64,000 nucleotides of DNA, taken from positions 351,523-415,522 of the forward strand of contig CAWKJG010000001.1 of the NCBI GenBank assembly GCA_963850005.1, read 5' to 3'. This DNA comes from an uncultured Alphaproteobacteria bacterium. Lineage in GTDB: Bacteria; Pseudomonadota; Alphaproteobacteria; Sphingomonadales; Sphingomonadaceae. This document shows positions 14,360-47,305 of the stretch, piece by piece; position 1 is the stretch's first letter, and each line of letters starts with the position of its first letter. Under the pieces are notes generated by a model that was not told the DNA's origin, searched no databases, and worked only from the letters and a program-made list of their open reading frames with translations. A program made the position numbers and the translations under genes.

Positions 14360-14364
14360 GCACG
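14360..14364 (+). repeat. target-site duplication GCACG (left copy)
   Basis: GCACG immediately before TGT at 14365; identical to 47203-47207. Confidence 0.9.
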
Positions 14365-14495
14365 TGTCAGTCCGCCCATAAGGCGTCATCAACCTAATGT
14401 AAATTCAACCACTTAGGCTGGTGAACGAGATCTGCCCTGTCATTTCGCTGCCCAAAAGCTGTCATTTGCTGACAGAATAGGCCCATAAGGTGTCT
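14365..14495 (+). repeat. transposon left end with three spaced TnsB-type sites
   Basis: TGTCAGTC-CG-CCCATAAGGCGTCA (14375-14388), CCCAAAAGCTGTCA (14451-14464), CCCATAAGGTGTCT (14482-14495). Confidence 0.85.
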
Positions 14496-14532
14496 TCCGT
14501 CGCCACGACGTCGATAACCACTAAAGCGATGT

Positions 14533-15573
14533 CTAGGCCGCCGCACCCGTCTCAGAGGGAAAGAGTTTGGGCAGCAACGTAATGATAGACAAGGCGGCCG
14601 GCGATCCTTTCGCCGCATGGCCCAGAAGCTTTTGAAACGCGAGTTTCGGCGGAGCATTGCCCAACCCAGTCTCAATGCCGTCGAGCTGCGGCGCGAGTGC
14701 TACCTGCTCCGTAGCGAAAACGACCAACGTCCGCAGACCATCTCGAATGATGCCGTCGAGCCTGAGGATCAATGGGTCATCTACTTCAGGCGTGACGTTT
14801 ACGTCGCCGTGCGCGACCTGGTTGCGAAGGCCACGGGCGCCACTGGGGCTGTCCAGAAACGCTGCGACCGCCGCTTGGTCTGGCTCGCGGCTGACCAAAG
14901 CTGCAGCAGTACCAAGCGTCACTCGCGGTGTGGGCCTGTTCTGCTTCCGATATTCGCCGAAGACGGCTTCGAGTGCGGAAAAGAGAAAGGCGAGCTTCTG
15001 TGCGCCCGACAGGCCGTATCCGTAGGAAAAACCGAAACTGCGCAGGGCCAGCATAACACCGGGATCACTAGCGGCGAACAGGTGCTCGAGTCGTAGATGA
15101 AGGAAGTTTATATCAGCGAGATCGTCAGCTTCGATCCGATATCGCGGCTCTGCGGGAAACTCCAGGAGGCGAGGGCCATAAGGGCCCGGTCGGCGAGAGT
15201 TGAGCTCTTTGACCCGCAGGTACCGAGTAGATAAGCGGGGGTCGATGGCTTGTCCCGCTTTGTGAATACGCATCGCAGCTACGAGCACCAGGAGCTCGCG
15301 TTCGCAGACGCTCTGGACATATTCAGCGGTGTGGCCGGCGACTTCCTCTTCGGTCAGGTTCACGCTGAAGAAAACGTGCTCGGCTTTATGGAATTCGCCG
15401 TACAGCCGAAATGCGTCTTCTTTGTGCTCGATCATGATCCAATCGCGCCACGAGATCCGCTGAAGCCACAAGCCAGCCACCTGCATTACAGGATCGGCAA
15501 GCTCGACGCCGGGCAGGTGAAAGACGGCCAGGAAGGCTGGGTATCCAGCACCGATGGACGGCGGCTCTGTCAT
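14533..15573 (-). CDS. ApeA-like HEPN domain protein
   Basis: LAFLFSALEAVFG...GLRNQVAHGD (R-x4-H HEPN motif). Confidence 0.75.
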   Translation of the reverse strand: MTEPPSIGAGYPAFLAVFHLPGVELADPVMQVAGLWLQRISWRDWIMIEHKEDAFRLYGEFHKAEHVFFSVNLTEEEVAGHTAEYVQSVCERELLVLVAAMRIHKAGQAIDPRLSTRYLRVKELNSRRPGPYGPRLLEFPAEPRYRIEADDLADINFLHLRLEHLFAASDPGVMLALRSFGFSYGYGLSGAQKLAFLFSALEAVFGEYRKQNRPTPRVTLGTAAALVSREPDQAAVAAFLDSPSGARGLRNQVAHGDVNVTPEVDDPLILRLDGIIRDGLRTLVVFATEQVALAPQLDGIETGLGNAPPKLAFQKLLGHAAKGSPAALSIITLLPKLFPSETGAAA

Positions 15574-16628
15574 AGCGGAGGTCCAGCCGGCGCGCCGATC
15601 AGCATCGCTGGAATCGTCAGGGTGGCGCGTGCTGTCTCAAGTTCAGCACGCAGTTCGACAAGGCGCGTCGGGCAATCAGCAGTATTGCGGGAGACGTGGA
15701 GAATTCGGATCATGGCTCGCGCCAAAGCACGGCGAGTCCAGCGCCAAAGAACCAAGGCTTGCGCCCCGGCTTGAGGGGTCTGGGCACAGTCCCGGCCGTG
15801 CAGGGCATCACTGCGCAGGGTATAGATGGTCTGAAGCATTGCGCGTAGAGGAGCGATCTCGGAGGGTTCGCTGGCTAACAGGCCCGCCCCACGCTCCACG
15901 AAAGCGGCCGTTACCCCCGAGGTGACGTCTGCCAAGAGAATTGCTTCTAGCGCTATGGCGGAATGCATCAATCCATCGATAGGCTCGAAGTCGGGCAGCG
16001 CGGTCGATCCTAATGTGGCAAGGGCCTGCGCGAACTCTCCTAGCCGGGCAGCGGGCTTCGCTGCGGTCACTATCGCGAGAATGCTTGCAATTTTTTCAAC
16101 GTCATTTTTGGAGAGGAAAAGCTCCGGCCGATTGTCCAATATCGCACGGCGTTCTAAGCGCCCTACTGTCCGGGAAGTATTCTTACCGTCTGACACATAA
16201 CTGATCGATTCTTCTATCGACCGCGTAGGGGCGCTAGACATCAGCGTGAGTGCGAGCCGAAGCTCATTGGCCGCCTCGATACCGGCTTCCAGCGCGGGAA
16301 CCGCGACTGCATCCCAGCGAGCTTGTTTCGCCTCTAGGGTGGCATAGATGGAGGCCGCATCAGACGGGTTGCCGTCATCTGGTGCGCGTTCTTCGTAGGT
16401 TGCTGCGTTAAGGCGGACGTAGAAAGAAGGCTCCATCAACTCGAATGCACGCTGTCTCTTCTCCGAAATCTCGCGATCAATCTCCGCCCACTCTTCGTAT
16501 TTGAGCACACGCAGGACGCCACCTGCATATGGGATTTCGACGTCTTTGCTGAGCCGCGTATCCGGGATGTGAATGAATACGTTCAATGGAATGTTGGACG
16601 AGCTGGCCATAAATCGCACAACTATCAT
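15570..16628 (-). CDS. ApeA-like HEPN domain protein
   Basis: HSAIALEAILL...IYTLRSDALHGR (R-x4-H); ATGA overlap with the next gene. Confidence 0.78.
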   Translation of the reverse strand: MIVVRFMASSSNIPLNVFIHIPDTRLSKDVEIPYAGGVLRVLKYEEWAEIDREISEKRQRAFELMEPSFYVRLNAATYEERAPDDGNPSDAASIYATLEAKQARWDAVAVPALEAGIEAANELRLALTLMSSAPTRSIEESISYVSDGKNTSRTVGRLERRAILDNRPELFLSKNDVEKIASILAIVTAAKPAARLGEFAQALATLGSTALPDFEPIDGLMHSAIALEAILLADVTSGVTAAFVERGAGLLASEPSEIAPLRAMLQTIYTLRSDALHGRDCAQTPQAGAQALVLWRWTRRALARAMIRILHVSRNTADCPTRLVELRAELETARATLTIPAMLIGAPAGPPL

Positions 16629-16861
16629 AACGCCTGCGATGATCGCACCCCCGCTACCCCTAAGTGCAACAGGTGCTTATAAATGGCGTCGTCGCGCGGT
16701 TCGGCCGATGTTTCGCCTTGATGGCGCGCCTAGCGCGTGCGCACCGCGGAGCTCGACGCCGCTCGGTGAAACCGCGTGGAGTCTCGGGCGAGGATTTCTG
16801 ACGTGGCCTGAAGGGGAGGGATTTCCCCATAGCTGGTCCTCCAGACTTGGAGGAACAGACG

Positions 16862-17584
16862 ATGACCTATTATACTCCCATCATGGCGCTCGGCGATCGC
16901 GTGAAGAAGCTCCGGAAAGAGCGAGCAATGACCCAGGAAGACTTGGTCGCGCGCTCCGGCCTTGGGCTCACCACCATCCAGCGCGCGGAGCGAGGCGAGC
17001 GGCTATCGGCCGAAACAATCGCGTCGCTCGCTGCTGCATTCGACCTCGAGGCGACAGACCTGACCTGCTCGGAATCCGCGCCGGACGACCAGCCATATTT
17101 GCCGCTGGAAACAATTCGTACCGGCCGCCAGCTCGTCGCCCTCATCGGGCGTAGCGAAACACTCGATTTCGGCTTCGTCGAACTGAACGATCTTGCCCAG
17201 GCCGAACTTATCGAGCAGCTACAGGCCTGGTGCTCGCCGCTCGGGCCGGGCCGCATCCCCTCGGGAGCCGTCGCGCAGGTAAAGCTCGAGCTTGAGGCAA
17301 CGCAGCTGCTGAAAGCCCTGGCCGAGCGCAGCCTGACGGTGACAGGCGCTGCCTTCAGCGTCACCGCCTACGACGTCGACGACGATTGCGGCGCGGGGCA
17401 GCCCATCCTGATGGGCCAGTGCGAATATATCTGCGCGGTGCTGCGAGTTGGCACGCAGGAGAAGATGGTCGATCGCGCCTACGTAATGGACAGCCTCGGC
17501 AAATGGGAGAATCCTGGACCTGAAGTCGTCTTTCCCCCGCAGTGCGACACGCTGGAGGACTGGCTGCGCGGCTTGGAGCGCTGA
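16862..17584 (+). CDS. XRE-family HTH protein with uncharacterised C-terminal domain
   Basis: LGDRVKKLRKERAMTQEDLVARSGLGLTTIQRAERG; about 170-aa extra C-terminus. Confidence 0.85.
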   Translation: MTYYTPIMALGDRVKKLRKERAMTQEDLVARSGLGLTTIQRAERGERLSAETIASLAAAFDLEATDLTCSESAPDDQPYLPLETIRTGRQLVALIGRSETLDFGFVELNDLAQAELIEQLQAWCSPLGPGRIPSGAVAQVKLELEATQLLKALAERSLTVTGAAFSVTAYDVDDDCGAGQPILMGQCEYICAVLRVGTQEKMVDRAYVMDSLGKWENPGPEVVFPPQCDTLEDWLRGLER

Positions 17585-17612
17585 TGAAAAGGTGTCGACA
17601 GCGGCTGGGCGA

Positions 17613-18536
17613 TTAGCGTCGCTCTGCTGCTTCCAGCAGGCAGGATCCCGGCCCGCTCATCGCGCGCAGCAGCGTATAGCCGTTGCTTTGGAGATCGCGG
17701 ATCTCGTTTAGCATGTCGTGGTATTGGAGGACGACATGGCCGGCGCCGACTTGGGCCATCTCGACGTTCGCACGCAGATCCTCGACCATCAGCCCTTCGC
17801 AGAAGTCGGATAAGGCTGACCGGCCGAAAGGTAATTCTTCCAATCCGCCGAGGCAGGGAGTGCCAATGTCCATACGCGCACGTCCGCAGGCGATGCCTTT
17901 TTCGAGTGGGACGGTCGCAAAGCCGATGAAGCTGGAATCGCCGCGGCCGAGGATCAGTGACGCCATCTCAAGGTGGTCGAGGGGCCCTCGCCAATACCCT
18001 GACCTTTCCATGACTCGCTTCAGCTTGGCGATCGCCGGCATCCGGAAATCGAAGGCGGAATCGAAGATGTTTCTGGCCTCAGGCTTCAGAAAGCCACTCA
18101 TCACGAATGGCTCGTCGGAGGGAATCTCCCCCGCTTCTCGCATCCGCCGGAACTCGCCGCTCAGGAACCAGACATGGACCAGATATTGGAGGAAGGACAT
18201 GCCGCGCTGGGTCCGGCCGAGCTGTGTCTCATCGACCCTGAATAGTGCCAGGTTCGCGGCAATCGCGATCATGTTCTTTTTCGCATCGTGTCTCGCGTCG
18301 TGACCGCCGCCGTCGAACTCGATGACGAACTGTGGAATCTGATCCTCGTCGCAGACGCAGATGTCGAAGTGGGCCTGTAAAGCGTAGGTGCCGATGGAAC
18401 GGGTCGGTAGTGCGTCGATGTTGATAACATCTGCGATCCGGACCTTGCGGTAAATTTCGGCGCGGTATCCGCCGACCGTGCCGACGATTTCTTCATAGAG
18501 ACGTTGTTCGCTGAGGTTCGAGAGGCGCCTCTTCAT
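17613..18536 (-). CDS. DUF2726 (restriction-endonuclease-like) domain protein
   Basis: KVRIADVI...HFDICVCD....PQFVIEFDGGGH; starts 6 bp after the hamB stop. Confidence 0.8.
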   Translation of the reverse strand: MKRRLSNLSEQRLYEEIVGTVGGYRAEIYRKVRIADVINIDALPTRSIGTYALQAHFDICVCDEDQIPQFVIEFDGGGHDARHDAKKNMIAIAANLALFRVDETQLGRTQRGMSFLQYLVHVWFLSGEFRRMREAGEIPSDEPFVMSGFLKPEARNIFDSAFDFRMPAIAKLKRVMERSGYWRGPLDHLEMASLILGRGDSSFIGFATVPLEKGIACGRARMDIGTPCLGGLEELPFGRSALSDFCEGLMVEDLRANVEMAQVGAGHVVLQYHDMLNEIRDLQSNGYTLLRAMSGPGSCLLEAAERR

Positions 18537-18542
18537 GGCCGG

Positions 18543-21500
18543 CTAATAGGTGCGCAAAACCTGCACGACCGGCAAGACGTCCACACGGAAGTCATGCCGT
18601 TCAGGCCGGGTCGTTAGTAGGGCGGCTGAGTAGGGAGAACGGGCCACGGCGAAGCCGGCGGCGTCAATCCAGTCGATGCCGTCGTTCCGGACGATCGGCC
18701 GGACGTCATAGGACCCGCGGTTTCCGTCAACCGCAGTTAGTTGCGCTACGCTTGCTCGGATAATGTCGGCAACCCCTCTCTCCTCAGCGATCGATCGCTG
18801 CCAGGCCAGGAAGAGCTGCGGGTCGATCAAAGTCTCAGCGTCGCGGGGATAGTCTTCCTGTTCGAGCCAGGCTTCGAATGCAGGACGCTTTGCGGCCGCC
18901 TCTTCCCGCGTCCCCGCCAAGCCTTGCGCGAGCGCAAAGGCTACGAACGGATCGAGCGTTCCCCACCGCAGCAGCTCGCGGAACCAAAAGCCGATCCAAG
19001 GCAGGCCGCTTGTGGCTCGCCATGTCTCGAGAGTCGGAATTTCAAGTGCATCGGCGTTCTGCCCCCATGCCTGCGCCACAGCCGCTCCGATGGCCACGCC
19101 GAGCCTAAACTCGATATTCTCGGTCACGAACCGCTGCCATGCGCGCAGGTCTTCAGGCTGGGGAGGCACGACTGCAAGTAATTGCATCCACCAGCCGGCA
19201 ACGTCGCGCCACCTTGCAAGCACGGCTTGATCGCCGACCGTGTCGCGGACCTGAAAGCCGATGCCCGGCTCGGCGCGGACCCGCTCGCCGAGGCGGACCA
19301 ATAGCGCAAACCGCTGCTCAGGCGTCCACGCACCATATTCGACCCCCGCTTCCAGTTCAGCGATTAGCTGGGGCGCGACCAACTCGAAGCGTCGCCCGAT
19401 GTAGGGCGTGAAGCCATATTGGTAGAGCCGCTTTCGCTGCTCGGGGTCGGGGTAGAGGCGTTCCACGAAAGCCCGCCCGCGCTTGACGAAGCTTTGTTCT
19501 AGCCAGGTCTCTTGTGCAGCAGCGACCCGCGCGAAGGTGCGCTGCCAGAGATTTCGCAGGAATTCTTCGACCCGAGCGCCGTCCAGCGCGGCTACATCGA
19601 CGCGCGCTAATTCTTCCGTCGCGGCAAGGAGAAATCCGTCCAGCTCATCGAGGCTATCGCCGAGCTGATCCGCTACTGTTCGCGACCTAACCCCGAGATT
19701 GGCGCCGGCGCGCTCGGGCAACGTTGCCTCAAGCCACGCGTGAAATTCCTGCTCGGTTCGAAGCCCGAGGTGGGCCGCAGCTTTTTGAGCGATCGAAATC
19801 AGCAGCACCATCAACGGGCTGTGGACTGCACCGCGGGCATCCTCGGCCAGCAGACGGCCCAGCAGATTATCGTAGTCTTGGGCTGCGCGTCGGATTTGGC
19901 GCAACTGCTCGACACGCTTTCCTTCTGCGGTGGTCGACACCGCTTCCGGCAGCGCAACCAGGGTCATGCCTTCGATTGATTCTGCGGCACCTGGTCGGCC
20001 GGCGCGTCCAGCTAAGTTGCGGAACTCTGCTGTGGACATGGGCACTACGATGGGCTGCGCCGTCTGTGTATCGAAGCTACGCCGTTCAAGGCTGGTGAGG
20101 AAGATGATGTCGAAGGGCAGGTTGACGCCTTCGGTCAGCGTCGCCGTTGCGAGAGTGACGGGGCAGATTCGTCGGTCGATCAGATCGGTCATCAGGCGAC
20201 GCAGGCGCTGGGGCATCTGCCCGTGACTGGTGGCCACGCCATGGTCGAGCAATCGCACCTCGAACGACTGCGCTCCGCAATAATCGACGCAGGCCGCGCG
20301 GGTTTCTGCTAATCGGGCCCTCTGATCAGGATCCTCGGGCAGCACGAACGGCGGCACATTCTGCCAGCCGGGAAGATCGAAGGCCTCCGCGTAGCGCTTC
20401 ATCAGGCGCTCGGGGCTTTGAGCGACTGAAATCAGAACTCGCCGCTTGCCCTCGAGCAAATGCAAGGCGGTCCAGAGCACGTAGAGCTGATTGTAATGCG
20501 GAAGGCTGTTCCGGATGATGGCCGCTGGAAACGGCATCGCGGGGATGCGGAGCGGCAGATAGACTGGCGCATCGCGGCCGCGGACATAGAGCGTCTGGCC
20601 GTTCATAATGTCGAGCATGGCCTCGGGAGCGCGACGGGGGTCGACTCGGAGCCCGCCGATCAGTTGACGGCTGCTCCGATAGTTGAGGCCGACCGGTGCC
20701 GCGTCCATGCGGCCCTCGATCCATTGGGAAACCGGCAGGGCAGCGCCGCCGGCGACCGCGGTCAGGGCGATCCGGGCCATGTCTGGCTTGATAACTAGCA
20801 GGCGCGAAACCATCGCTTCGAGGCGCATCGCGCGGCTGCTGTGCGACGCCAGCGCCTGCTGCGCATTGGCATCATTGTCACTGACTACCTGGTGGGCTTC
20901 ATCGATTATCAGAAGGCGCAATCGCTGGACGAGCAAGTGGCCGACATAGCGCATCAGCGCTTCGGCCTTTTCGACCGTTGCGATGAGGACAACTGGCCGA
21001 TCGGCGGTCAGCCAGTAATCGGTGATGCCCCAATCTGTCCCACCATAGAGCCCAGTCACGATGAGGTCGTTGCCGAGCTCTGTGGTCAGCTTCGCCTCTA
21101 CCTCGCTTGCAAGGGCCCGGGAGGGCACGAGGTAAAGTGCGAGGGGGGCCTCTCCCGGCTTATAGTCGGCAAGCAGCAGCTCCTTCACCAGAGCCAGATT
21201 GGCGACAAGCGTCTTGCCCGAACCGGTCGGCGTGCACAGCGCAAAGCTGTCGCTGGCGATGAGCCGTTCCAGCCCTTCAACTTGTGAGGTCCACAAGACG
21301 CCCCTGCCGCGTGCGAACTGTTCGCGGGCAAAGCGCCACATGCGGGGCTGCTGCTCGGGCGCGCGCGCGGCAAGTCGTGCGACCCGGCTGTGGAGACTGT
21401 TGGCGGCGAACCGCTTCGCGGTTGCTTCTATCAGGTTGATGAGAACCCAGAGTTCGTCGCTAGCGAGCCGCGTGGCGAGGGAGCTGAGCCCGGACAGCTT

Positions 21501-22242
21501 TTCGAGCGCCTGCCCAAGCCGGACATCATTGCCGCGGCGCAGGCTGTCTCCGATCAGTCCGAGGGCACGGATTAGTTCAACGACGACATACCAGCCGATC
21601 CTGCTCTCCGGCTGCGCATCATCGGCTTCGGCATCATCGAGAGGGCCAAAGGCGGTGTCGGGCTTCTCTTCGGCGGGTTCGTCAGTTTCCAGGTCGGCAT
21701 CGTCATTCTCCAGCAGTGATGCGGATCCCTCCCGGCCAGTGAGGGCTTCATTGTCGATCCAGAACGCAACCGAGCGTTCTAGCAGCCGGTCGAAGTCGGC
21801 ACCGAGGAACGAGGCGAAGATCTCTGCGACACCGCCGCCATAGCCGCCCTGGCGAAGTAAACTCGTCGCCATCGCGGGTAATCCGGCGAGCTGGTAGGCT
21901 CCTGCCGCGAGCAGGGTTACAGGCACCTCTCGCGTGACGATGTCCGAAGACCGGGCCAGCCATTCAAGCAACTCGGCCGCGCGCCGATAGCAGCCGATCG
22001 AATTCTGGAGAGCCTTCTCCGTCGATTTCGCGAAAGATGTGGGCGGCGTGTAGGAGCCTCCGAGCATCCGCAAATTGCTCATTCGATTCCCGGAGGTCCC
22101 AAGCGATTGGGGGCACTTGCCACGATGTCTGCAGGCTGCGGACGAATAGCCGGGCTTGTGCTGGTGTGAGCTCATTCTCCGCAGCCCGATTGAAGCGGAG
22201 ATTCATAGCCAAGGCACGGCGCTGCTCGTCGAGCCGCGCCAT
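18543..22242 (-). CDS. hamB: Ski2-like DEAD/DEAH helicase, Hachiman HamB-like; +1 frameshift at ~22001
   Basis: PTGSGKT, IIDEAH, LTA, SHGQM, ATATLTEGVNLP, NLAGRAGRPG; N-terminus in the 21964-22242 ORF joins after removing one base (1232 aa); TGATG overlap with hamA. Confidence 0.8.
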
Positions 22243-23190
22243 CAGAGAGGGTTCCAGAGCGATCGATACAGCCGCTCGATGAGATCGACGCCGCCTTCGA
22301 CCACCAGTTCGACGACCTGGAGGGGGCGTCCCGCCGTATATTCAGGCGGTGGCGCCACCATGGGTAAATAAGCTTCGCCGGGCGCGCGTCGCTTAGCTCG
22401 GTTCCCAGCGACAAAGACCAGGTCAGTGCGAGGAAGCGGTGCTGCCCCGAGCAGCAGAACGCGATCGAGCGACACGATCGCTTCGGCATACTGATCGCGC
22501 GCCTTCTCACAGAGGAGACGATGAATTTGCTCGAGGCCTTGGGGCGTGGGCAGGCCTCGGTTCATCTCGTTCCAGACGCCATCATTGCCGCGGACCCGGG
22601 CATTCGCCGGCCCGGACATTTCGCCCAGCATTATGTCGTTCATCTTGCTGGGCGTCAGGGTCGCTCGCCATTTGGCTTCGCCGGCGATAAATCTCACCAC
22701 CTGGCCCGTCGTCGAAATCGATCCCTAGCGCGATGAAGTCGTTTCCGTGCCGGCCAGACACCTGTCGAACGCGCGCCGGATCCCGCGCCAGTTCGAAGAT
22801 ATAATCGCCGACTTCCGCGTGGTAACGGAACAGGAAAATCGGGATCGTCCATTGGTGCCCGCCGACGAACTGATAGGCTTGGGTCATGAGACCCGCCATA
22901 ACTTCCCCGAACAGGCCCTTCTTCGCGGTCGGCGGAAGACAATTCGGATAGCATGCATTGCCGCCGGGAGCGCCGGCGTCGGGATGCAAATCAATTCGGG
23001 CAGCCCGGTGAAACACCTCGCGCGCATCCAAATGTGCCAATTCGAAATAAGGACGGAGTTCGGCGACCCCGGCATCGTCGAGCGGGGCTGTCTGTTCAAA
23101 CAGCAGATGCCCGTAATTGCCGTTGACTTGCGCAGCGCCGCGCAGCCAGCGGTTCAGCAGCGGCATAGGCGGCGGGCAGTTATGGAGCAT
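22242..23190 (-). CDS. hamA: PD-(D/E)XK nuclease, Hachiman HamA (DUF1837)-like; +1 frameshift at ~22715
   Basis: KKGLFGEVMA...GRHGNDFIAL...FIAGEAKWR across two frames; one-base removal gives 315 aa; directly upstream of the helicase. Confidence 0.72.
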
Positions 23191-23388
23191 AGCTGGCTGC
23201 TCTCACCAAATTCCACGTGATCGGGCGTCAAAGGTAAAGCGAAGAGTCACTGGCGAGCGTTGCCGGTAGGGATGCACATGGCGTTACGATAGCACTCCCG
23301 GCAGCGCTTCCAAGCAGCGTCCCAGTTCGATGTCCGTTCGCTTTATCGCACCCGTAGATCGGCTACCACTTCCTTTGATGCTGATTAT

Positions 23389-23682
23389 TCAACGAGCTCG
23401 CTCGAGCAGCTCTTCCAGTCGCGCCGCATCCCGGCGTAGCTTGGTCGCGATTTTGGCTAACTCTTCCAGTCGGGGCGGGGCGGGGCGCTTCTCGGTAGAA
23501 TCTGGATTCCATCGTGCCAATGCCCTTGTGGCCTTATCGCTCAGAGGGACCTTGCCAGCGACAATCTTGCTGTAATGTCCTTGCGTCATGTTGCAGGCGG
23601 CGGCGAGCCCGGCCTGCGACCAGCCAGCCTCGCGCCGTTTCCGATCGATTTCCAGGATAAAATCAGAAGGGGTGCTTTTCAT
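23389..23682 (-). CDS. XRE-family HTH transcriptional regulator
   Basis: RKRREAGWSQAGLAAACNMTQGHYSKIVAG. Confidence 0.85.
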   Translation of the reverse strand: MKSTPSDFILEIDRKRREAGWSQAGLAAACNMTQGHYSKIVAGKVPLSDKATRALARWNPDSTEKRPAPPRLEELAKIATKLRRDAARLEELLERAR

Positions 23683-23687
23683 CGTGG

Positions 23688-23717: not shown

Positions 23718-23727
23718 TAAAGGAGCA

Positions 23728-24558: not shown

Positions 24559-24601
24559 GCATACTTAATCTTCAAGCCTGCTATTGTGCAGGAGGCGAAG
24601 A

Positions 24602-38570: not shown

Positions 38571-40609
38571 CAGTCGGGGCTTTTGAGGATTCGGACGCGC
38601 CGGCGGCCGCCCGGAAAGTGTGTGACATTGCTCGGCTCGGCGCGTCGCGGGCCATCGTCGTTCGAAGCCGCGACGCCGCGGTCCCTGCGGCTGTGGATGC
38701 TGCCTGGAGGAGAGGTGGAATAGTCGTCGCCTGCGGGTGCGATGCGGGCCTGGCCGGTGAAGCGGGCCAGCTGTTTCGATGTTTTGCTCTTCCGCTGCCT
38801 GCCGTCTTTGGTCTCGTATTGAGTGACGAGGCCGGCCATCGCTTCCATGAGGCGATCGGGTTCGATGGCGGCGTCTGATCGGGCTCGCTCGAACTTCAGG
38901 ATGGTCAGGTGCTCCCAGAGGGAGAGGCCGTCGGCGTAGGCTCGCCATTTCGGTACTGGGAGGACCTCGAGATAGCGCTCCTCGTGCGGCAGGTAGACGA
39001 AGACGGCGCCGAGGTCCGCTGGGTCGTACCGCACTTCCACCCGCGGCTTTGGACCCGCCTTAGCGAGGAAGGCGCGGGAAGTGAGCTGCGCCGCGAGCTC
39101 TGGGCTGTTGTAGATGATGTACTTGAACCGGACGCCTTCGCGGCTCAGGCTGCATTTGAAGCCGCGGCCGAGGAGGGGTCGGATCTCGTTGATGTCTTCG
39201 AGGGCGTCGACCGGGAAACGCCGAGTGAGCTCGTTCCAGCGTCTCGCGGGGACGTCGCGGATGCCGCTGTGGCGCTTCTGCGCATAGATATCGACGAGAA
39301 AGCGGTGGGTCTGGTGGTAGAGCTCGTCGAGGGTGATGACGGCGTTCTTTTCGGGGTTGTAGTCGTCGCGCTCGACGACGTTGCTGAAGGTGGTGCCGCG
39401 CTGCTCGTGGAGAAGTCGGCTGTTCAGGGTACGGAAGAAGCGTTCGATGGCGCCCTTCCGCTTGGGATCTTTGCGGCCGGCGAATCGAACCCGTGTGATG
39501 CCGAGGCCGTGCGCGATCAGCCGGATGTCATGGCTGAGATTCTCCATGGCGCGATCGAGGAGGAGAGCGCGGGGCACGCCGAACACTGGCCAGTGGTTGT
39601 CGATCTTCCAGTGGCCGATCTCGACCTTCCGCTTGATGTAGGTCTTGGGGAGGATGCCGTTCTTCAGGCATTGGGTGACGCTGAGGATGCTGGGCGGCTC
39701 GAACGTGATGTAGAAGCCGAAGGGCATCCGGGTGCATCGGTCGATGGCGAAGACGATGGTTGGACGGCCGATTGGCAGCCGCAGGCCGTTGGTGACGACG
39801 AAGAGGTCGGCGACGGTGTGGTCGAGTTCGACGAGATCGAGCGGCGCCTTTGGGTCTTTCTGGTGTTCGACATTGTTGTAAAGTTGGGCCGCCGCTGCTT
39901 CGCCGTGCCTGGCCGCGTGGACTTCTCGCTTGTCTCGCATTCCGATGGCGGATGAGATTGCGTCTCGCCCTGGCTTGGGCAGCTTATCATCCTCTGCTCT
40001 ATGCTCGTTCACCTGCCGGATTTCGGTGTGGATGATGGCCTGAAGCGTCGGGATGAAGATGGGCGGCCGCCTCAGATAATGCTGATCGATGGCGCGCTCG
40101 ACGATTTCCCGGACTTCCGGATGGAGTCGGTCCGCACGGTTACCCTTGGCGTGATGCCTGGCGGCCACCCGGCCAAGATGGGGCCGATCTCCAAATTCTG
40201 CGTTCCAGCGCTGGACGCTACGACACGTAGGCGCGGTCGGGTCGCTTATCCGTCTCGCGGTTGCGAGGACGGTGCTCTCCTGCAGCTTGACCGGGCTTCG
40301 GGGGGCGAGCCGGCGGAGGTCTTGTACGTATTCCCATTTGCGCTGCAGCTCGGCGATCTCCTCGGGCGACATATTTGAGAGGTCCGGTACGGGACGAGGT
40401 GCGGTTGTGCCTTTCGACCGGGAAGCCGGGCAGGTGAGGCGGGCGGAACCGTTGGCCACGAGCTCCGCGATCTCCTCGTCGGTGAGGACGAGATGTTCGT
40501 TCGTGCGGTCGTGGACCCAGTCGATCTCGTCGCCGCGCCGCTGCTCGAAGCGATAGTCGCGGCCTTGGTAAATCAGGCGAGTAGCGACGGTGAGGTCGTA
40601 ATGCGTCAT
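38570..40609 (-). CDS. tnsB: TnsB DDE transposase with Mu-transposase C-terminal domain
   Basis: VELDHT..D, GRP.I...ID..TR, LLDRAMEN, KGAIERFF, VRYDPADLG; start MTHYD at 40609. Confidence 0.94.
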   Translation of the reverse strand: MTHYDLTVATRLIYQGRDYRFEQRRGDEIDWVHDRTNEHLVLTDEEIAELVANGSARLTCPASRSKGTTAPRPVPDLSNMSPEEIAELQRKWEYVQDLRRLAPRSPVKLQESTVLATARRISDPTAPTCRSVQRWNAEFGDRPHLGRVAARHHAKGNRADRLHPEVREIVERAIDQHYLRRPPIFIPTLQAIIHTEIRQVNEHRAEDDKLPKPGRDAISSAIGMRDKREVHAARHGEAAAAQLYNNVEHQKDPKAPLDLVELDHTVADLFVVTNGLRLPIGRPTIVFAIDRCTRMPFGFYITFEPPSILSVTQCLKNGILPKTYIKRKVEIGHWKIDNHWPVFGVPRALLLDRAMENLSHDIRLIAHGLGITRVRFAGRKDPKRKGAIERFFRTLNSRLLHEQRGTTFSNVVERDDYNPEKNAVITLDELYHQTHRFLVDIYAQKRHSGIRDVPARRWNELTRRFPVDALEDINEIRPLLGRGFKCSLSREGVRFKYIIYNSPELAAQLTSRAFLAKAGPKPRVEVRYDPADLGAVFVYLPHEERYLEVLPVPKWRAYADGLSLWEHLTILKFERARSDAAIEPDRLMEAMAGLVTQYETKDGRQRKSKTSKQLARFTGQARIAPAGDDYSTSPPGSIHSRRDRGVAASNDDGPRRAEPSNVTHFPGGRRRVRILKSPD

Positions 40610-41352
40610 CGGCGATCCTCGAGGGGAGAGTTGAAGGGAATGAGGCGTGGAAAGGTCACGGATCCGGCCACGTGGATCATGGTCTCGACCGTGACGCCTC
40701 GGGCTATGTCGGCGGTGATTCTTCGCTGGCACAGGAGCGCGAGGAAGGTTTCGAAGGTGGCGCCGTGGGCCCTAGTGCGATCGAGCAGGTCGGAGACCGG
40801 CGCTGGACCGTCTTCGAGGGCCAGGTCAATTCGTGACCAGACATCTTCTTTGACGCGGGTTCGGAAGCGCCTGAAGACGTCGTCGAGATGCTCGTACTCG
40901 GGCTCCTGGATGAGTTCGCTTCGGACAGCGACGCTGTAGCGGTGTCCTCGGTCGTGCAGTGCCTTGGCGATCCACCAGAGGCGTTCTTGCTCGTCCGGCT
41001 CGGCCAGGCTCTTATCCGATTTGACCTCGTGCCACTCGCATTGACCGTCGATCATGATGCAGAAGTCGATGACGGTTCGGCGTGTGCCGGCGGGATGGCG
41101 GTATTTGAGCTCGAGGGGTTGCTCCCAGATCGCCGTGACGCGCGGGTCGAGCTCGGCTCGCATGATGAAAGCGAATTCGCCGTGCAATTCGTGGTCGAGG
41201 CAGCCGCGGTGCCTGAGGCGGCTGGCCACGAAGCCGGTTTCGCGCGTGGCGGACCGGCGGTTTATCTTCCTTAGCGGAGTTTCGCTTGGCAGCAGGTCAA
41301 GGATTTGACGGTCGTCCAACCCGGCTTTCCTCCCAACTAATGCTTTGTGCAT
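40606..41352 (-). CDS. tnsA: TnsA endonuclease
   Basis: HE...E...I..AELDP.V..IWEQP..L.Y, VIDF, EVK; ATGA overlap with tnsB. Confidence 0.88.
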   Translation of the reverse strand: MHKALVGRKAGLDDRQILDLLPSETPLRKINRRSATRETGFVASRLRHRGCLDHELHGEFAFIMRAELDPRVTAIWEQPLELKYRHPAGTRRTVIDFCIMIDGQCEWHEVKSDKSLAEPDEQERLWWIAKALHDRGHRYSVAVRSELIQEPEYEHLDDVFRRFRTRVKEDVWSRIDLALEDGPAPVSDLLDRTRAHGATFETFLALLCQRRITADIARGVTVETMIHVAGSVTFPRLIPFNSPLEDRR

Positions 41353-41557
41353 AGTTGCTGGAATAGTCGGGTATCGCCGTGCCGGTTAATTTCCTGTTCT
41401 ATACGTTAGAGAAAGTACGAGTCTTACTTGTGCACTGCGGCTATATTAATGCCGTAATGTGAATTGCAAGCTAGACTACAAGTGGCATTGATTCCGTGGT
41501 GATGGCTTGTCGAGCGTCCTGGCGGCCGATCAGCAGTTTTGGCCGGAAACGCGAAAA

Positions 41558-44500
41558 TCAGCCTTCCGCCCCAGCGATCCGACGCCTCCTCGGTAGGACC
41601 TGCGACCGCCGGCGGACACGTGGCCTGCGGAACGTCTGGGCGTTCTCACGGAAGCGGCCGTCTATTTGGTCGAGTGTCTGCCTTGCCTCGTAGGCGTCGA
41701 TGTCAATCAGTTGTTCGAACAGCTCCAAGCCGACATCGCGCGTGTCCGGTCCGAGCCGGTGCAGGGTCACCGCCAGATCGACCAATGGCGAGGTCGCCCT
41801 AGCCGTGGCCGTACGCATGTCCGCCAGCTCTCCTTTCCACTTCTCGGTCAGCACCACAGCGATCTCACCGACGATTACCGCCTCGTGAGGCAGGAGGGTC
41901 GCCAGCGCGTCGATGACGAAGGTCGGATCGATTGACCCTGACCGGTGCACGCCGTTCGCTACCGCCCGCAGAAATGCGACCGTTCCCTCGTCGGGCACCA
42001 GCCGGTCTACGAGGCGGAAGAACTCGAAAGCGGCCGGCCAGACCGCAGGATTCGGTAGGGCGAGCAACGCCACGAGCGCCCGCGCCGCCTCGACCCGGCG
42101 ATCCGGTTCCTCGGCGAGAAGGTGCGCGGCCGTCAACGCGGCGCCGACCTGGGCCGCCGGCGAGCCGCCGCCCCCGATGAGTTCGTCGAGACGGCGGTGG
42201 GACTCCTCGCGCTCCGGATGGAGGATAGCGTCCAAAGCCGCGATTTCCCCGTAGGCCTGTCTAGCCAGGACTTCTCGGCTGTCTTTCCACGCGTCGAGGT
42301 GGCGTTCCACTATCCGGTGGTGCGCCTCCTGTGCATCGGCAAGGAATTGCGCAAATGCCTTACTGCCCACCACGCCTGGGACCGTGGTCAGCACCGCCTC
42401 GATCAGCGCGTCGCCGGCTCCCGCCGCCGCGCCCCCAATCTGCAGGAAGTAGCGCGACAGCACTTCCCATTGACGTATGCCTTTCTCCCGCTCCAGGAAG
42501 CGGGACATCGTCTCCACCGCCTCCTCGGCCTCGCTGCGCAGGAGCCTGATGTGCACGAGCGCATCCACCACCGGCAGGTCCCGCCCCGGGTAGCCGCCGC
42601 CAATTCCCCCATAGCCCCAGAGCGGGCTGCTTTCGATGTCGGGCTCTTCCCCCTCGGCCGCCTCGGCCTCGAGTTCGGCCGATCCCGCGTCGTCACTCGT
42701 CGTCTCCTCGTCTTGCGAATCTTCCTCGTCGTCTCCCGAGGCGAGCGGGGCATCCAGCCAACTTTCGAGCTGGGCGATGAGGTCGTTCGGCACCGGCGCG
42801 CCGCGACGCGCCAACCGCTCGAACGCGCTGGCCACCGACCGGCGGAACTCCTCGCTGTCGAAATTTCGGGCGGTTACGTCGCGGGCGAGCTGGGCGACCG
42901 TCTCCGGATCGCCAGCTTCGGCCAGCGCGTCAATCGTATAGGCGGCGGCGCGCACGCCGTTGGATGCGTCAAGCCTACTGAGGATTCGCACTGCGCGAGC
43001 GGGGTCCGTCTTGGCGAAGTCGGCGAAGGCGCGCGCCAGCTGCACATTGCCGCCCGCCATCCGCCTCCGCGGATGGTCCCAGCCAACCGCATCGGGTAGT
43101 TCCACGAACGCGTTCACGATGTCGTCGTCACTCGCCCGGGACATTTGTCCGGCCTCGATGATGGAGCCGACCGCGACTGGCCCGCTAAACGTCACCCCAC
43201 GCCGCCCGGTGCCGAAGCGTCGTTCGTCCTCCTGCACCTGCCGCTCCGCCGCCGAGGAGCGCTGGTGCTTGGGGAGCGCCCGGAGCAATTCGAGTTGCGT
43301 ATGCCGAATCATGTGGCGCCAGCGCATCCGGTCCTTCGGGTCGGTCTTCTCGTCCGGCGCGGGTATAGCGAATGCGCGCACGCGGGCCTCGAAAGCTTCG
43401 ACCTGCGCCGGGGACCAGAAGGGGCTGACCGCGGACACCATCCGCTTGATCGTGCCGTGCATGTCGTGGATGGAACCCAAGAAGTAGCGCCGCTCGTCGC
43501 CGAGCGCGAACGCAAGTCCGTCGGCGGCGAAGGTCTCCGGGCGGTGTGCGATGCCATGGGCGATGAGACGCTGAATCGGAGTTAGCGCGATTCCGTCATT
43601 CTGGGCGGCCCAGCGGCGGAACGCCTCGGGGTCGCGGTCCGCCATGCCTTCTACCGCCACGCGCAGCGCTCCCAGGACGGCGCCCTCGGACAGCCCCAGA
43701 TTGTTCTCGCGGTCGAACCGGAAGTCGGCCTCATGAGCGAGCGCGTAGCCAAAATATCTGTCGCCAGCTGTGGATCGCTCCAGCTCCGCGAGAGCTCTCG
43801 TGAACCATGGCCACAGCGCGTCGATCAGCTCCCTGGGCCAAGCCTCGGCAATGCCTGCCAGACTGTCCCACTCGTCACCGCGCTCGACCATGTTCCGGAC
43901 AGGGTTGCGGACCCGGTCCAGAAGCCTGCGCTCTACCTCCTTCCCGCTACCCTCTGCCCCGTCCGCACGAGCCTCCTCCGCAGTCTGTCTCTCCTCGGCG
44001 GCGCGGTCCAGGTCCCTGTCGAGCTTGGTCCGCACCAGTCGAAGCGCGGCCTCGGGATGGTCGACGGCGGCGGTAGCTGCCTGGTGGTCGATCGTGGGGA
44101 CCGCGAGGTCGGTGCGCGCTATCGCCGTGGTCGCGATGGCCAGCGCGTCGTCGGTCCAGGGGGATGACCACTGGATCACGGCCCAAGTCCGCACGTCGTT
44201 CCCCGGGTCCGGCAGCCAGCGTTCACGGATGAGTTCGGCCACCTTGGCCGGCGCGGTTCGCAGCGCCTCGGTGAGCACCGCGATCTGAGCGTTCGCGAGT
44301 CGCTCCTCCCCGATCATTGCCCCGGCCACGTGGGTGTCGGCGAGCCGCGCGAACCAGCCGGCGCTGCCGGTCACTGCCTTGTAGCCGCGCAGCCGCGTCG
44401 CATCCCCGGCCAGCGCCGCGTCCATAAGGATGGCCTCGCGGTCGGTCGGGTCGCTCTGGGACCCGAGGAAATCGATGAGCAGGGCGCGCAGGTGCGGCCG

Positions 44501-46705
44501 GAGGTCGAGACGCCAGACGGCCTCCAACTCGCCATGGTATAGGTCCCGGTCGGCGCTGCGCAGGTAGGTGAGGGCTGCCCAGAGCTTGGGCCGCAGGAAG
44601 AGGGACGATTGGCGGTCGCTTGCGAGGCGGGATAGTCGGCCCGGCTCGCGGGCTTGGCTGCGCGCAAGGGCAAACTCGAACAGCGTCTGGTGCGAGAAGC
44701 CAACACTAGCATCTACCGTCTTTAGAATTCCGGCGGCGACAAGGGCGTCGAGCTCAGCCGATCGATCGGCGAAGCGCGCCTTCGCCAGCCAGAGGCTCTC
44801 CTGCTCTGCCATGGCGTCGGCCACGTCGGACGCCAGGAGGTCCAGCGCGCCGCCGTGCCCGCCGACTAGCACGCGCTCCGTCCAAAGCCGTTCGAGCATC
44901 ATTTGATAGCTTGCGAAGGGTTGCCCGTCGGGGAGGCCGCCGAGCTGGAGGTAGGTGGCGAGCGCCTGCGGGATTCGCATGACTTGCTGGGCGTCGGCCG
45001 GCCAGCCAGCGGCCGCAACGCCGTGGGCCTCGAGCACGGCCAGCACGTCACTCCAGGGCGGCAGCTCGAGTTCCAGGCTCTCCGCGCCGGCGCCGCGAAG
45101 GCGGACGTCGTGCTGGAACTCGAATGGACGGGACGAGAGCACGACGTGGACGTTGTCGGTCCCTCCGACCGCCCGCACGAGGTTGAGCAGCACGCTTAGC
45201 CGCATCGTCTTGATATCGAGATAACCGGCAAGGGCATCGAGTTGATCTATTATCAGCAACACGGGGCCGAATTTTGCTAGTTCGCGCAGCGTGTCGGAGG
45301 GAGGCCGCTTCAGCCCCAGCCTCTCGCGTAGCATGTCTTCGCTCACAACATCCGGTTCGATGACGTCGGCCTTGATGGCTAGGACTGGCCAGCCTGCGTC
45401 CATGTAGGACCGGGCGAGTGTCGCTAGCAGTGCCGACTTTCCCGAGCCCGCCGCCCCAATAACCGCCGTCGTCGAGGAGACGCTGTCGGAGATTCGCTCC
45501 ACGAGCCGCGCCAGCTCAGGTCGCTCCAGCCACTCGCCGTCCGGCAGCGACGTGGGCCAGGCGAGCAGCTCTACCGACGCCGCGGTGAGTTCGCGGACGC
45601 GTTCCTCGCGCAACTCGTAGAACTCGATCGGGACGATGCCGACGAGCTCGGCATCGGCCAGCTTAAGCAACTGCTCGCGCAGGCCTTTCGGGTCCGCCCG
45701 CGCCAGGGCACCGTCGGGATCGGATACGAACAGCAGAAGCGAGCCGGCGCGGGCCTCGACGATGGAGATGCGGCCGTTCCCGGCGGCGCTCCGGATGGCG
45801 TGCTGCAGGCGGTCCAGCCCCTCAGCGTCGTCGGCCTGGATGTTCACGGAAAGGTTCAAGACGAAGGACACTTCTACTTTCAGCGCCACCGATCCGCCGC
45901 CGTCCGGGGCATCACTGCCAACCCCAGGGGCGCCGGTGTCCGGATGAGGGTCGAGGCGCTCACGCCACTCGACGATGAACTGTCGCAGCAGGCGGTGCTG
46001 GAGTGCCTCCTCGTCCGCGATCTTAGCGATCGAGAAGTGGTCCGAGTCCGGGATCTTGATCGGATCGCCGAAATAGCGAGCCCCCGAGAACGGTTCGACC
46101 ACCTGCCTGAGGCACCACCGCTTGAGAACGACGAATTGGTCCTCGACCAGCTCTTTGCCGGTGAGCCGCAGCCGCCGCTGCTCTTTCATGTTCAGGAAGT
46201 CCCGGTCGAGGTCGTTCAGCCATGTGTTGGATTGCGAGAACCGCAGCGCGTCCGCTTGCGAGTGGCTGAGCCGGCGTGCGAGCGGCGTCAGCCAGTTCGC
46301 GTAGCTGGAGCCTAGAGACGGGGAGGCGACGAGGAAGAGCGCGACCGGGATGTCGCGCTCAGTCAGCTCGGCCGCGCGGGTAACTAGGTATCGGCGGACC
46401 AGGATGCCGCCCATGCTATGGCAGACGAATACGACGCCGCCGGGGGTGACGATCTTCTCGAAGTTGAGATGCTCCTTTAGCGCGTCGACCGCGTCGCTAA
46501 GGTGGTAGTTTCCAGAGAAGAAGCCCGTCTTGTAGGAGAAGACGTAGACGCCGACGTCGGTCAGCGCCAAGTCCTCGGCGACGATGGTGGGCCAGAAGCT
46601 GCCCTCGGGGTGCAGCCAGCACGTTTCCCCCTCCGAGAGCACGCCGTGGACGAACACCACAACCGGCGCGCCCTCGGCGGCATGCCTCACCCACACCCCG
46701 GTCAT
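41558..46705 (-). CDS. alpha/beta-hydrolase (lipase-like) fused STAND ATPase, Avs-like (~1715 aa)
   Basis: VFVHG, FWP, VFVCHSMGG nucleophile elbow, DHFSIAK; Walker A GAAGSGKS, Walker B LLIIDQLDAL, FSHQTLFEF; long helical C-terminus; start MTGVW at 46705. Confidence 0.85.
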   Translation of the reverse strand: MTGVWVRHAAEGAPVVVFVHGVLSEGETCWLHPEGSFWPTIVAEDLALTDVGVYVFSYKTGFFSGNYHLSDAVDALKEHLNFEKIVTPGGVVFVCHSMGGILVRRYLVTRAAELTERDIPVALFLVASPSLGSSYANWLTPLARRLSHSQADALRFSQSNTWLNDLDRDFLNMKEQRRLRLTGKELVEDQFVVLKRWCLRQVVEPFSGARYFGDPIKIPDSDHFSIAKIADEEALQHRLLRQFIVEWRERLDPHPDTGAPGVGSDAPDGGGSVALKVEVSFVLNLSVNIQADDAEGLDRLQHAIRSAAGNGRISIVEARAGSLLLFVSDPDGALARADPKGLREQLLKLADAELVGIVPIEFYELREERVRELTAASVELLAWPTSLPDGEWLERPELARLVERISDSVSSTTAVIGAAGSGKSALLATLARSYMDAGWPVLAIKADVIEPDVVSEDMLRERLGLKRPPSDTLRELAKFGPVLLIIDQLDALAGYLDIKTMRLSVLLNLVRAVGGTDNVHVVLSSRPFEFQHDVRLRGAGAESLELELPPWSDVLAVLEAHGVAAAGWPADAQQVMRIPQALATYLQLGGLPDGQPFASYQMMLERLWTERVLVGGHGGALDLLASDVADAMAEQESLWLAKARFADRSAELDALVAAGILKTVDASVGFSHQTLFEFALARSQAREPGRLSRLASDRQSSLFLRPKLWAALTYLRSADRDLYHGELEAVWRLDLRPHLRALLIDFLGSQSDPTDREAILMDAALAGDATRLRGYKAVTGSAGWFARLADTHVAGAMIGEERLANAQIAVLTEALRTAPAKVAELIRERWLPDPGNDVRTWAVIQWSSPWTDDALAIATTAIARTDLAVPTIDHQAATAAVDHPEAALRLVRTKLDRDLDRAAEERQTAEEARADGAEGSGKEVERRLLDRVRNPVRNMVERGDEWDSLAGIAEAWPRELIDALWPWFTRALAELERSTAGDRYFGYALAHEADFRFDRENNLGLSEGAVLGALRVAVEGMADRDPEAFRRWAAQNDGIALTPIQRLIAHGIAHRPETFAADGLAFALGDERRYFLGSIHDMHGTIKRMVSAVSPFWSPAQVEAFEARVRAFAIPAPDEKTDPKDRMRWRHMIRHTQLELLRALPKHQRSSAAERQVQEDERRFGTGRRGVTFSGPVAVGSIIEAGQMSRASDDDIVNAFVELPDAVGWDHPRRRMAGGNVQLARAFADFAKTDPARAVRILSRLDASNGVRAAAYTIDALAEAGDPETVAQLARDVTARNFDSEEFRRSVASAFERLARRGAPVPNDLIAQLESWLDAPLASGDDEEDSQDEETTSDDAGSAELEAEAAEGEEPDIESSPLWGYGGIGGGYPGRDLPVVDALVHIRLLRSEAEEAVETMSRFLEREKGIRQWEVLSRYFLQIGGAAAGAGDALIEAVLTTVPGVVGSKAFAQFLADAQEAHHRIVERHLDAWKDSREVLARQAYGEIAALDAILHPEREESHRRLDELIGGGGSPAAQVGAALTAAHLLAEEPDRRVEAARALVALLALPNPAVWPAAFEFFRLVDRLVPDEGTVAFLRAVANGVHRSGSIDPTFVIDALATLLPHEAVIVGEIAVVLTEKWKGELADMRTATARATSPLVDLAVTLHRLGPDTRDVGLELFEQLIDIDAYEARQTLDQIDGRFRENAQTFRRPRVRRRSQVLPRRRRIAGAEG

Positions 46706-47154
46706 CGGAAGTGTCCCGGACTTCGGTGCCAACGCGGTCCGCGCGTTGGGCGGAGACCGAAGGAAAAGGAGGTCTGCTGCGTAGGATCCATCGGATTGCT
46801 GATGGCACCGGAACGCCGCGGGTTGAAGGCTGAAACGGCTCAGACCCCCCAAGAAAGCTCCGCGCCTGACACGCCCCGACCCGGGCGTTATGGCGACCGA
46901 TGCCGCGGGGGGCGAGGATGCCGTGCAAGGACTACGGTAACCCTATCCTTCGGTCGGCTAGGTCCCAAACCTCGCCGTCGCGCGCGGTCACGTGACCGAC
47001 GCCCGAAACTGAGAAGTCGAGAGGCGGCCGCTCGTCGCGATTCGTTTCGTTGATTAAGACCTGGCTTTAAGCAACCTCGACGGTGAGATTCGCACGGGGC
47101 TTGCAATGAAAGGCGCCTAAAGCGGCCACCTCCCGGGCGGTCCCATATTGCCTC

Positions 47155-47202
47155 GTTGACAGCTTATGCCCCCACCGTGGACAACTTATGCCCGGTTTTA
47201 CA
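47155..47202 (-). repeat. transposon right end with closely packed TnsB-type sites
   Basis: Minus strand: TGTAAAAC-CG-GGCATAAGTTGTCC...GGGCATAAGCTGTCA; same TGT-to-CATAAG spacing as the left end. Confidence 0.88.
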
Positions 47203-47207
47203 GCACG
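47203..47207 (+). repeat. target-site duplication GCACG (right copy)
   Basis: GCACG immediately after ACA; identical to 14360-14364. Confidence 0.9.
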
Positions 47208-47230
47208 TGCTGATCGCCGGCAAAGGCGAG

Positions 47231-47305
47231 TGGCTCCCCGGGACGGATTCGAACCATCGGCCATCCGATTAACAGTCGGATGCTCTACCGCTGAGCTACC
47301 GGGGA
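47231..47305 (-). tRNA. tRNA-Asn (GTT)
   Basis: TCCCCGGTAGCTCAGCGGTAGAGCATCCGACTGTTAATCGGATGGCCGATGGTTCGAATCCGTCCCGGGGAGCCA: cloverleaf, GTT anticodon, encoded CCA. Confidence 0.97.

Follow-up and report, generated by a model that had tools for sequence, protein, structure and literature searches.

A Tn7-like transposon without CRISPR and with defence cargo, probably directed to tRNA-Asn by its TniQ protein, in a member of the Sphingomonadaceae

The stretch of DNA analysed here, hereafter the window, comprises 64,000 nucleotides (64 kb) of contig CAWKJG010000001.1 from an uncultured alphaproteobacterium of the Sphingomonadaceae. It harbors a Tn7-like element of 32,838 bp (14365-47202, termini TGT…ACA), which is flanked by a 5-bp direct duplication and lies beside an intact tRNA-Asn(GTT) gene, the sole tRNA gene found in the window by ARAGORN and Rfam. 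We consider it very probable that this is an intact and probably still active transposon lacking CRISPR (short palindromic repeats, clustered and regularly interspaced), which carries defence cargo and is directed to tRNA-Asn(GTT) by TniQ. The ends and the target comprise the following features:

14360-14364, no strand: left copy of the target-site duplication GCACG, identical to 47203-47207
14365-14494, plus strand: left end with terminal TGT and three spaced TnsB-type sites (motif search)
47158-47202, minus strand: right end with terminal TGT (ACA on the plus strand) and two abutting TnsB-type sites (motif search)
47203-47207, no strand: right copy of the target-site duplication GCACG (sequence)
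47231-47305, minus strand: tRNA-Asn(GTT), intact, proposed determinant of the attachment site (ARAGORN; Rfam, 71.7 bits)

Ends, target duplication and transposition genes

Across the left junction (14360-14387) the sequence reads GCACG followed by TGTCAGTCCGCCCATAAGGCGTC, and across the right junction (47180-47207) it reads GACAACTTATGCCCGGTTTTACA followed by GCACG. The duplication is perfect and separated by 23 bp from the encoded CCA of tRNA-Asn, which ends at 47231; counted with the duplication, the distance from CCA to the terminal TGT of the element is 28 nt. The TnsB-type motif CATAAGNNGTC, with at most one mismatch allowed, occurs seven times in the 64 kb, and five of these occurrences fall at the two ends. 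Three spaced sites are located at the left end (14365-87, 14441-63 and 14472-94; spacings of 76 and 31) and two abutting sites at the right end (47158-80 and 47180-47202; spacing of 22). In the family, this site has the general form TGT-N8-11-CATAAGCTGTC, and the site CCCATAAGNTGTC is also present at the ends of related elements. A third site at the right end, inside 47136-47158, matched weakly and is hence not claimed. The first-pass annotation, made from the letters of this DNA, had described the layout of the ends, the spaced left and packed right sites and the duplication of GCACG 23 bp past the CCA, all of which can be read in the sequence. Terminal TGT…ACA, asymmetric multi-site arrays and a 5-bp duplication are the hallmarks of Tn7-like ends. 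Moreover, the G+C content is 0.65-0.73 in the flanks vs. 0.56-0.64 in most of the element.

The transposition core comprises four genes:

40606-41319, minus strand: tnsA, 237-aa endonuclease (Pfam Tn7_TnsA-like_N; NCBIfam TnsA_like)
38570-40609, minus strand: tnsB, 679-aa DDE transposase (Pfam Mu-transpos_C; PDB matches)
37668-38570, minus strand: tnsC, 300-aa AAA+/TniB-like regulator (Pfam TniB, 2e-14; same length in all homologues)
35902-37671, minus strand: tniQ, 589-aa TnsD-like selector (Pfam TniQ, 2.4e-13)

Seen from the tRNA side, the order on the minus strand is tnsA-tnsB-tnsC-tniQ, with stop/start overlaps (ATGA, TGATG and GTGA) that render the genes translationally coupled, and the lengths of all four equal those of their homologues. 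TnsA matches PF08722 (4e-7) as well as NCBIfam TnsA_like (1.3e-11, which is under the curated cut-off of that model), and its motif E…PDF…ExHEVK does not vary among nine members of the family. TnsB matches PF09299 and, among PDB entries, TnsB of PseCAST (7e-57), Tn6677 (1e-41) and Tn7 (1e-19); the alignment with PseCAST TnsB covers 510 residues and the D, D and E positions are conserved. Judged by these matches, TnsB is nearest to the transposases of type I-F3 CRISPR-associated transposons (CASTs) and much further from Tn7 TnsB. The genes tnsC (PF05621) and tniQ (PF06527) share one operon. Taken together, TnsA, TnsB, TnsC with TniQ, and the ends place the element among the Tn7-like transposons with heteromeric TnsA/TnsB.

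TniQ features an N-terminal TniQ domain, a CxxC…CxxC zinc ribbon and a C-terminal extension of ~210 aa. An AlphaFold2 model built on 28 homologues (predicted local distance difference test, pLDDT, 87.7) was compared with known structures by Foldseek, which placed type I-F3 TniQ on top (E about 1e-6), while Tn7 TnsD in the TnsC-DNA complex matched with an E of 4e-3. The type I-F3 match covers the first ~360 residues, and the last ~210 have no counterpart in type I-F3 TniQ. Residues ~365-575 are confidently folded in the model and gave only weak matches to MerR-like helix-turn-helix proteins (BldC, RacA; Foldseek probability 0.4-0.7).

Homologous elements beside four tRNA genes

Homologues of this TniQ are rare. 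Word-based searching among 5.8 billion proteins returned four, to which a second such search added one, and HMMER, run in full against 1.84 billion cluster representatives, yielded 49 at E <= 1e-30. A profile search of genome and metagenome contigs gave no match with a close TniQ alignment and one partial contig with a 10-sequence alignment. This TniQ was not found in ~150 other genomes of the host genus, and a search for plasmid-borne copies returned none, just distant N-terminal matches. Two loci with distant TniQ homologues (L036 and L053) showed neither Tn7 core genes nor a tRNA on their short contigs. A right end is visible in seven elements, which form the set for the comparison of geometry, as the other contigs break before it. 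In the following, loci are labeled L and genomes G; each line gives TniQ identity to the window, target and distance from CCA to the terminal TGT:

Window: 100%, tRNA-Asn(GTT), 28 nt
L013: 67%, tRNA-Asn(GTT), 26 nt
L015: 51%, tRNA-Asn(GTT), 24 nt
L029: 32%, tRNA-Thr(TGT), 26 nt
L033: 32%, tRNA-Thr(TGT), 28 nt
L041 (genome G518, genus of the window's host): 36%, tRNA-Lys(TTT), 28 nt
G326 (same family, other genus): 32%, tRNA-Cys(GCA), 28 nt

In all seven elements, the tnsA-side end points towards the 3' end of the tRNA and lies 24-28 nt from its CCA. Homologues at unrelated loci or at variable distances, which the first-pass annotation had named as speaking against its proposal, were consequently not what this set revealed. 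The G326 element is flanked by a 5-bp duplication of its own, TTGTT. Insertion in one orientation, at a short fixed distance and with the target gene left intact, is the trait of TnsD-type transposition and is displayed by seven of seven elements.

The three insertions at tRNA-Asn are furthermore independent and not a single inherited one, because the hosts are closely related, the elements have diverged and the spacers are unrelated. Identity of the window to L013 or L015 is 90-92% in the host gene for NAD kinase, which lies across tRNA-Asn from the element, as compared to 51-82% for TnsA, TnsB, TnsC and TniQ (TniQ itself 51-67%). The 24-28-nt spacers between tRNA and element share no sequence relationship among the three loci, and the only sequence that these have in common beside the insertion point is the tRNA gene.

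A maximum-likelihood tree of TniQ groups the three Asn elements, plus two members without a visible target, in one clade (support 100/98), the two Thr elements in a second (100/97) and the Lys element with its near twin L028 in a third (100/100), with the Cys element standing apart. Between clades, the C-terminal third is least conserved (20-33% identity vs. 29-40% for the N-terminal part). The target tRNA thus tracks the TniQ clade, as TnsD-type recognition predicts and as a loose hotspot would not yield. The homing of the element to tRNA-Asn via its TniQ, as proposed in the first-pass annotation, is in this way backed by geometry, by independent insertions and by the match of clade and target.

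In the mechanism we envisage, TnsA and TnsB would excise the element and insert it elsewhere, while TnsC would join TnsA/TnsB to the target. The single 589-aa TniQ would act like TnsD of Tn7 by recognizing the gene for tRNA-Asn(GTT), in all likelihood through the conserved 3' half. Insertion would then occur in one orientation, with the right end towards the tRNA and ~23 bp downstream of the CCA, producing the 5-bp duplication and leaving the tRNA intact. Sequence and comparison show the anatomy, the duplication, the intact and coupled core genes and the recurrent position and orientation beside tRNA genes in a family whose TniQ clades follow different tRNAs. Reading of the tRNA gene by TniQ, binding of DNA by its C-terminal extension and continued mobility of the element are what we infer from this.

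Several observations weigh against this interpretation. The exact empty site was not recovered when the joined flanks were searched against 40 relatives, nor when the left flank alone was searched. In relatives, the homology of the right flank begins 2-3 nt past the duplication, and collinearity with the left flank of the window is lacking on the opposite side. The distance from CCA to the end spans 4 nt among the three tRNA-Asn elements (24, 26 and 28). A single TnsD studied in one assay reportedly held to ±1 bp, a tighter value, although different TniQ orthologues are compared here. The informative loci number only seven, and the three Asn hosts are congeners. The DNA-binding role suggested for the C-terminus of TniQ leans on the weak Foldseek matches to the model mentioned above, and another conserved gene, either the primase discussed below or a 219-aa protein, could contribute to targeting.

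The empty-site check proposed in the first-pass annotation came out in part. In the congeners G009 and G014, tRNA-Asn and the left-flank dksA/traR-type gene are separated by 316-466 bp that contain no transposon, so that flanking synteny without the element does exist, but no sequence was collinear across the junction. Congeners differ strongly in the stretch downstream of tRNA-Asn.

Two side observations concern this stretch. In G009, exactly between the dksA/traR-type gene and tRNA-Asn, we noted a 306-nt fragment (L002 1195-1500; G009:C5:45036-45341) with 82% identity to window positions 12748-13053, which lie within a 419-aa open reading frame (ORF) of the left flank. The fragment ends 2-3 nt from the equivalent insertion point and represents an unexplained rearrangement at this spot. 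In another congener (L012; G015:C2), tandem CTGAGAACAC repeats are located directly downstream of tRNA-Asn, at about 130 nt, and may belong to the terminus of another mobile element that uses this tRNA.

The primase gene, competing explanations and cargo

Directly 3' of tniQ, the element carries a gene for a primase:

34786-35889, minus strand: DnaG-like primase with CHC2 zinc ribbon, DUF7146 and Toprim_3 (Pfam); probable start GTG at 35814, ~342 aa

The protein also matches NCBIfam dnaG and the TraI C-terminal region, as well as the DnaG zinc-binding domain in the PDB. A primase occupies this position in eight loci representing seven distinct elements, namely the window, L013 (10577-11593), L015/L016 (L015 6711-7700), L014 (5372-6382), L027 (3566-4597), L029/L030 (L029 11878-12870) and L041 (6582-7613), and thereby spans the Asn, Lys and Thr clades. 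With 49-82% identity to the window copy, it is better conserved than TniQ (32-67%). Since it is missing after tniQ in G326 and in L051, where the left end follows tniQ directly (the right end and target of L051 lie off its contig), the primase is clade-specific and not universal.

The nearest relatives elsewhere are encoded on sphingomonad plasmids. CHC2-DUF7146-Toprim primases of plasmids, e.g., pDE3 of Sphingobium baderi, are 47% identical, with the same domain order and the motifs CEGPEDG and GDNN. On pDE3, the one plasmid examined, the primase lies amid ssb, a thermonuclease gene and toxin-antitoxin pairs, which we read as a conjugative leading region, whereas here it is fixed beside tniQ. 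A catalytically dead primase was considered, as the Toprim DxD reads DNN, and rejected: the plasmid homologue reads the same GDNN, which is therefore not evidence of inactivation, and the conserved Glu is present.

This gene raises the question of whether TniQ is the protein that reads the target. The tRNA gene could instead be read by another factor, or by TniQ together with one, such as the primase, the 219-aa protein or a host factor acting at tRNA genes, with TniQ serving as adaptor to TnsC. Consistent with this option, the primase surpasses TniQ in conservation and is syntenic with tniQ throughout the loci listed above; furthermore, the short type I-F3 TniQ proteins, which the TniQ of the window resembles most, are adaptors and not readers of DNA. 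However, the primase hardly varies between targets, as the primase of the Lys element aligns closely with those of the Asn elements, whereas TniQ splits into target-specific clades. G326, at tRNA-Cys, keeps the 28-nt geometry without a primase after tniQ, L051 likewise has none there, and TnsABC plus TnsD alone suffice for tRNA homing in the systems tested (PMC9881144). We therefore regard this option as improbable and continue to favor recognition of the tRNA gene by TniQ. It is even less probable that the element is an immobile fossil in a general island hotspot downstream of tRNA-Asn: tRNA genes are common integration hotspots and the region past tRNA-Asn varies strongly among congeners, but an integrase hotspot would leave att repeats of the tRNA 3' end, of which there are none in the window, the duplication is perfect, the four core genes are intact and coupled, and the orientation and 24-28-nt spacing shared by seven elements at four tRNAs mark directed Tn7-type insertion rather than a loose hotspot.

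Further candidates were rejected. A CRISPR-guided pathway, as in CASTs, finds no counterpart here: there is no array and there are no short-range direct repeats in the element, no cas-family match among the ORFs scanned and no Rfam match except the tRNA, in agreement with the CRISPR-less character assigned to the element in the first-pass annotation. A second TniQ was discarded as well, as the whole genome contains one TniQ-domain gene, and the description of a single TniQ stands. Finally, a tyrosine-integrase island was rejected, given that the 3' end of the tRNA occurs once in the window and the ORFs scanned revealed no integrase domain.

Beyond targeting, the primase might be a working part of the transposon family and not cargo, e.g., by priming the repair or replication that follows strand transfer, or by serving a TnsE-like second pathway into replicating or conjugating DNA. 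We judge such a role unlikely, albeit less so than the two alternatives weighed above. If it were true, the family would constitute a primase-associated Tn7-like lineage with naturally swappable tRNA-reading selectors. Our literature search found no description linking a primase to a Tn7 core, and the conserved primase is the one feature of the element that could prove mechanistically new.

The remaining features of the element are a conserved non-coding block and the cargo:

41325-41425, minus strand: conserved ~90-nt block upstream of tnsA, putative promoter, 5' untranslated region (UTR) and ribosome-binding site (near-identical in L013, L015, L028 and L041)
41558-46852, minus strand: 1764-aa STAND NTPase, cargo between tnsA and the right end (Pfam nSTAND/NACHT; PADLOC PDC-M54A)
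34022-34681, plus strand: 219-aa protein with hydrophobic N-terminus, convergent with the primase/core operon (conserved position)
14533-33434, no single strand: cargo, mostly defence-like, G+C 0.56-0.64 (Pfam and PADLOC scans)
Within 14533-33434: two ~350-aa proteins (Pfam/PADLOC scans)
17613-22175, minus strand: DUF2726 protein next to a 1210-aa HamB-like helicase (PADLOC HamB, 1.9e-46)
23728-27432: HhH-glycosylase/PfkB-NDT/QueC operon (Pfam/PADLOC)
27499-33434: STAND/TPR/kinase-like genes (Pfam/PADLOC)

The ~90-nt block (…GTATAGAACACGAAATTAACCGGCACGGCG.TACCCGACTATTCCAGCAACTATGCAC…GGGAGGAAA) is near-invariant where the proteins of the elements are only 35-67% identical. Copies are located at 4995-5090 in L013, 1120-1211 in L015, 330-418 in L028 and 13125-13215 in L041, and the block is absent from the Thr clade. 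It probably comprises the promoter, the operator and the 5' UTR.

With respect to the core genes, we also noted mosaic modules: compared to the window, TnsB of L014 is 90%, TnsC 73% and TniQ 44% identical, which suggests recombination swapping selectors between related elements. A further observation concerns L028/L025 (JAXDKF010000073.1, labeled as Fimbriimonadaceae), a 5.7-kb contig binned to a metagenome-assembled genome of the Armatimonadota. Its region upstream of tnsA closely resembles that of L041 (G518), and its TniQ is the nearest relative of the L041 protein (51% N-terminal identity). This likeness suggests mis-binning or recent horizontal transfer.

Cargo between the right end and tnsA is unusual in Tn7-like elements, in which tnsA normally abuts the right end. 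The first-pass annotation had the tnsA-proximal end facing the tRNA, which is correct insofar as tnsA is the nearest transposition gene; it does not adjoin the end, however, as the STAND NTPase gene intervenes. This gene has a host-like G+C content of 0.67-0.70 and is absent from L013, L015, L029, L033 and L041, in which 230-530 bp separate the start of tnsA from the end. Cargo is tolerated at this position, with 5.3 kb in the window and 21 kb in G326 (L022 13575 to L044 15563), including czc-type efflux genes. Genes upstream of tnsA were also observed in L026 (1-5800) and L051 (256-1785). On the other side of the core, the 219-aa protein is found at the same position in L014, L015 and L041 with 57-67% identity and has no Pfam or NCBIfam match. 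Among the remaining cargo, the genes at 17613-22175 appear, by their profile matches, to be a Hachiman-like defence system.

Comparison with known systems

Tn7, with its TnsABC plus TnsD pathway to attTn7 downstream of glmS, is the obvious point of reference. Both elements feature separate TnsA, TnsB and TnsC, a long selector of the TniQ family, a 5-bp duplication, TGT termini, and one end with spaced and one with packed sites. Furthermore, in both cases the tnsA-side end faces the recognized gene, and insertion takes place ~23-25 bp past its end, leaving the gene intact. They differ in the target (glmS vs. a tRNA gene), in TnsB and TniQ, which in the window are much nearer to the type I-F3 CAST proteins, in the lack of TnsE or a second pathway in the window, and in the cargo between tnsA and the right end. 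Also, TnsC of Tn7 is much longer than the 300-aa protein encoded here.

Homing to tRNA genes is already experimentally established for TnsD proteins, at a distance of 29-33 nt past the tRNA in McCAST, PmcCAST and CyCAST (PMC9881144, PMC10293859), and “safe sites downstream of tRNAs” have been described as a general theme (PMC8649781). McCAST inserts 29 ± 1 bp after tRNA-Leu with TnsABC and TnsD only (PMC9881144), while PmcCAST targets tRNA-Val and CyCAST inserts 30-33 nt after tRNA-Leu (PMC10293859). As presumably in the family of the window, these CASTs of types I-B2 and I-D, together with their non-CAST relatives in cyanobacteria, rely on protein-only targeting by TnsABC and a large TniQ/TnsD to a fixed distance past a tRNA, and related selectors of a single clade have come to address different tRNAs (PMC9881144, PMC10293859). 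In contrast, TnsA and TnsB are fused in these elements, which usually also encode a second, small TniQ, be it with Cascade or without, whereas the family described here features separate TnsA and TnsB, one TniQ and no CRISPR, belongs to another host lineage and is found at tRNA-Asn, -Thr, -Lys and -Cys. Because the elements just named belong to the fused-TnsAB clade, while separate TnsA/TnsB are combined here with a type I-F3-like TnsB and TniQ, tRNA homing in this family was probably acquired separately.

Among solved structures, TnsB finds its closest homologues in the type I-F3 CAST cores (Tn6677 and PseCAST/Tn7016) and their non-CRISPR relatives, which the first ~360 residues of TniQ also match best by structure. 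In comparison to these, the element of the window lacks Cascade and a CRISPR array and its TniQ features the additional C-terminal region of ~210 aa, so that its targeting is presumably mediated by protein and not by a guide RNA.

The first-pass annotation had suggested a potentially new pair of selector and target. Our literature search yielded no paper that connects Tn7-like elements to tRNA-Asn; as TnsD-directed tRNA homing has already been demonstrated (PMC9881144, PMC10293859), however, the novelty has to be toned down. On the sequence evidence, the family would represent a new set of selectors and targets on a type I-F3-like core and not a new mechanism. It adds to the Tn7 catalogue a compact homing system, apparently protein-only, with four core genes and one selector, and its natural selector variants at four tRNA genes with the same geometry could serve as a comparative set for how TnsD-like proteins read DNA. 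The cargo, including the Hachiman-like genes, the STAND NTPases and the QueC-type operon, points to one route by which defence genes may move between related soil and water bacteria. In this context, the proposed use as an integration tool appears plausible, and these elements might provide candidate safe-harbour integration tools for Alphaproteobacteria.

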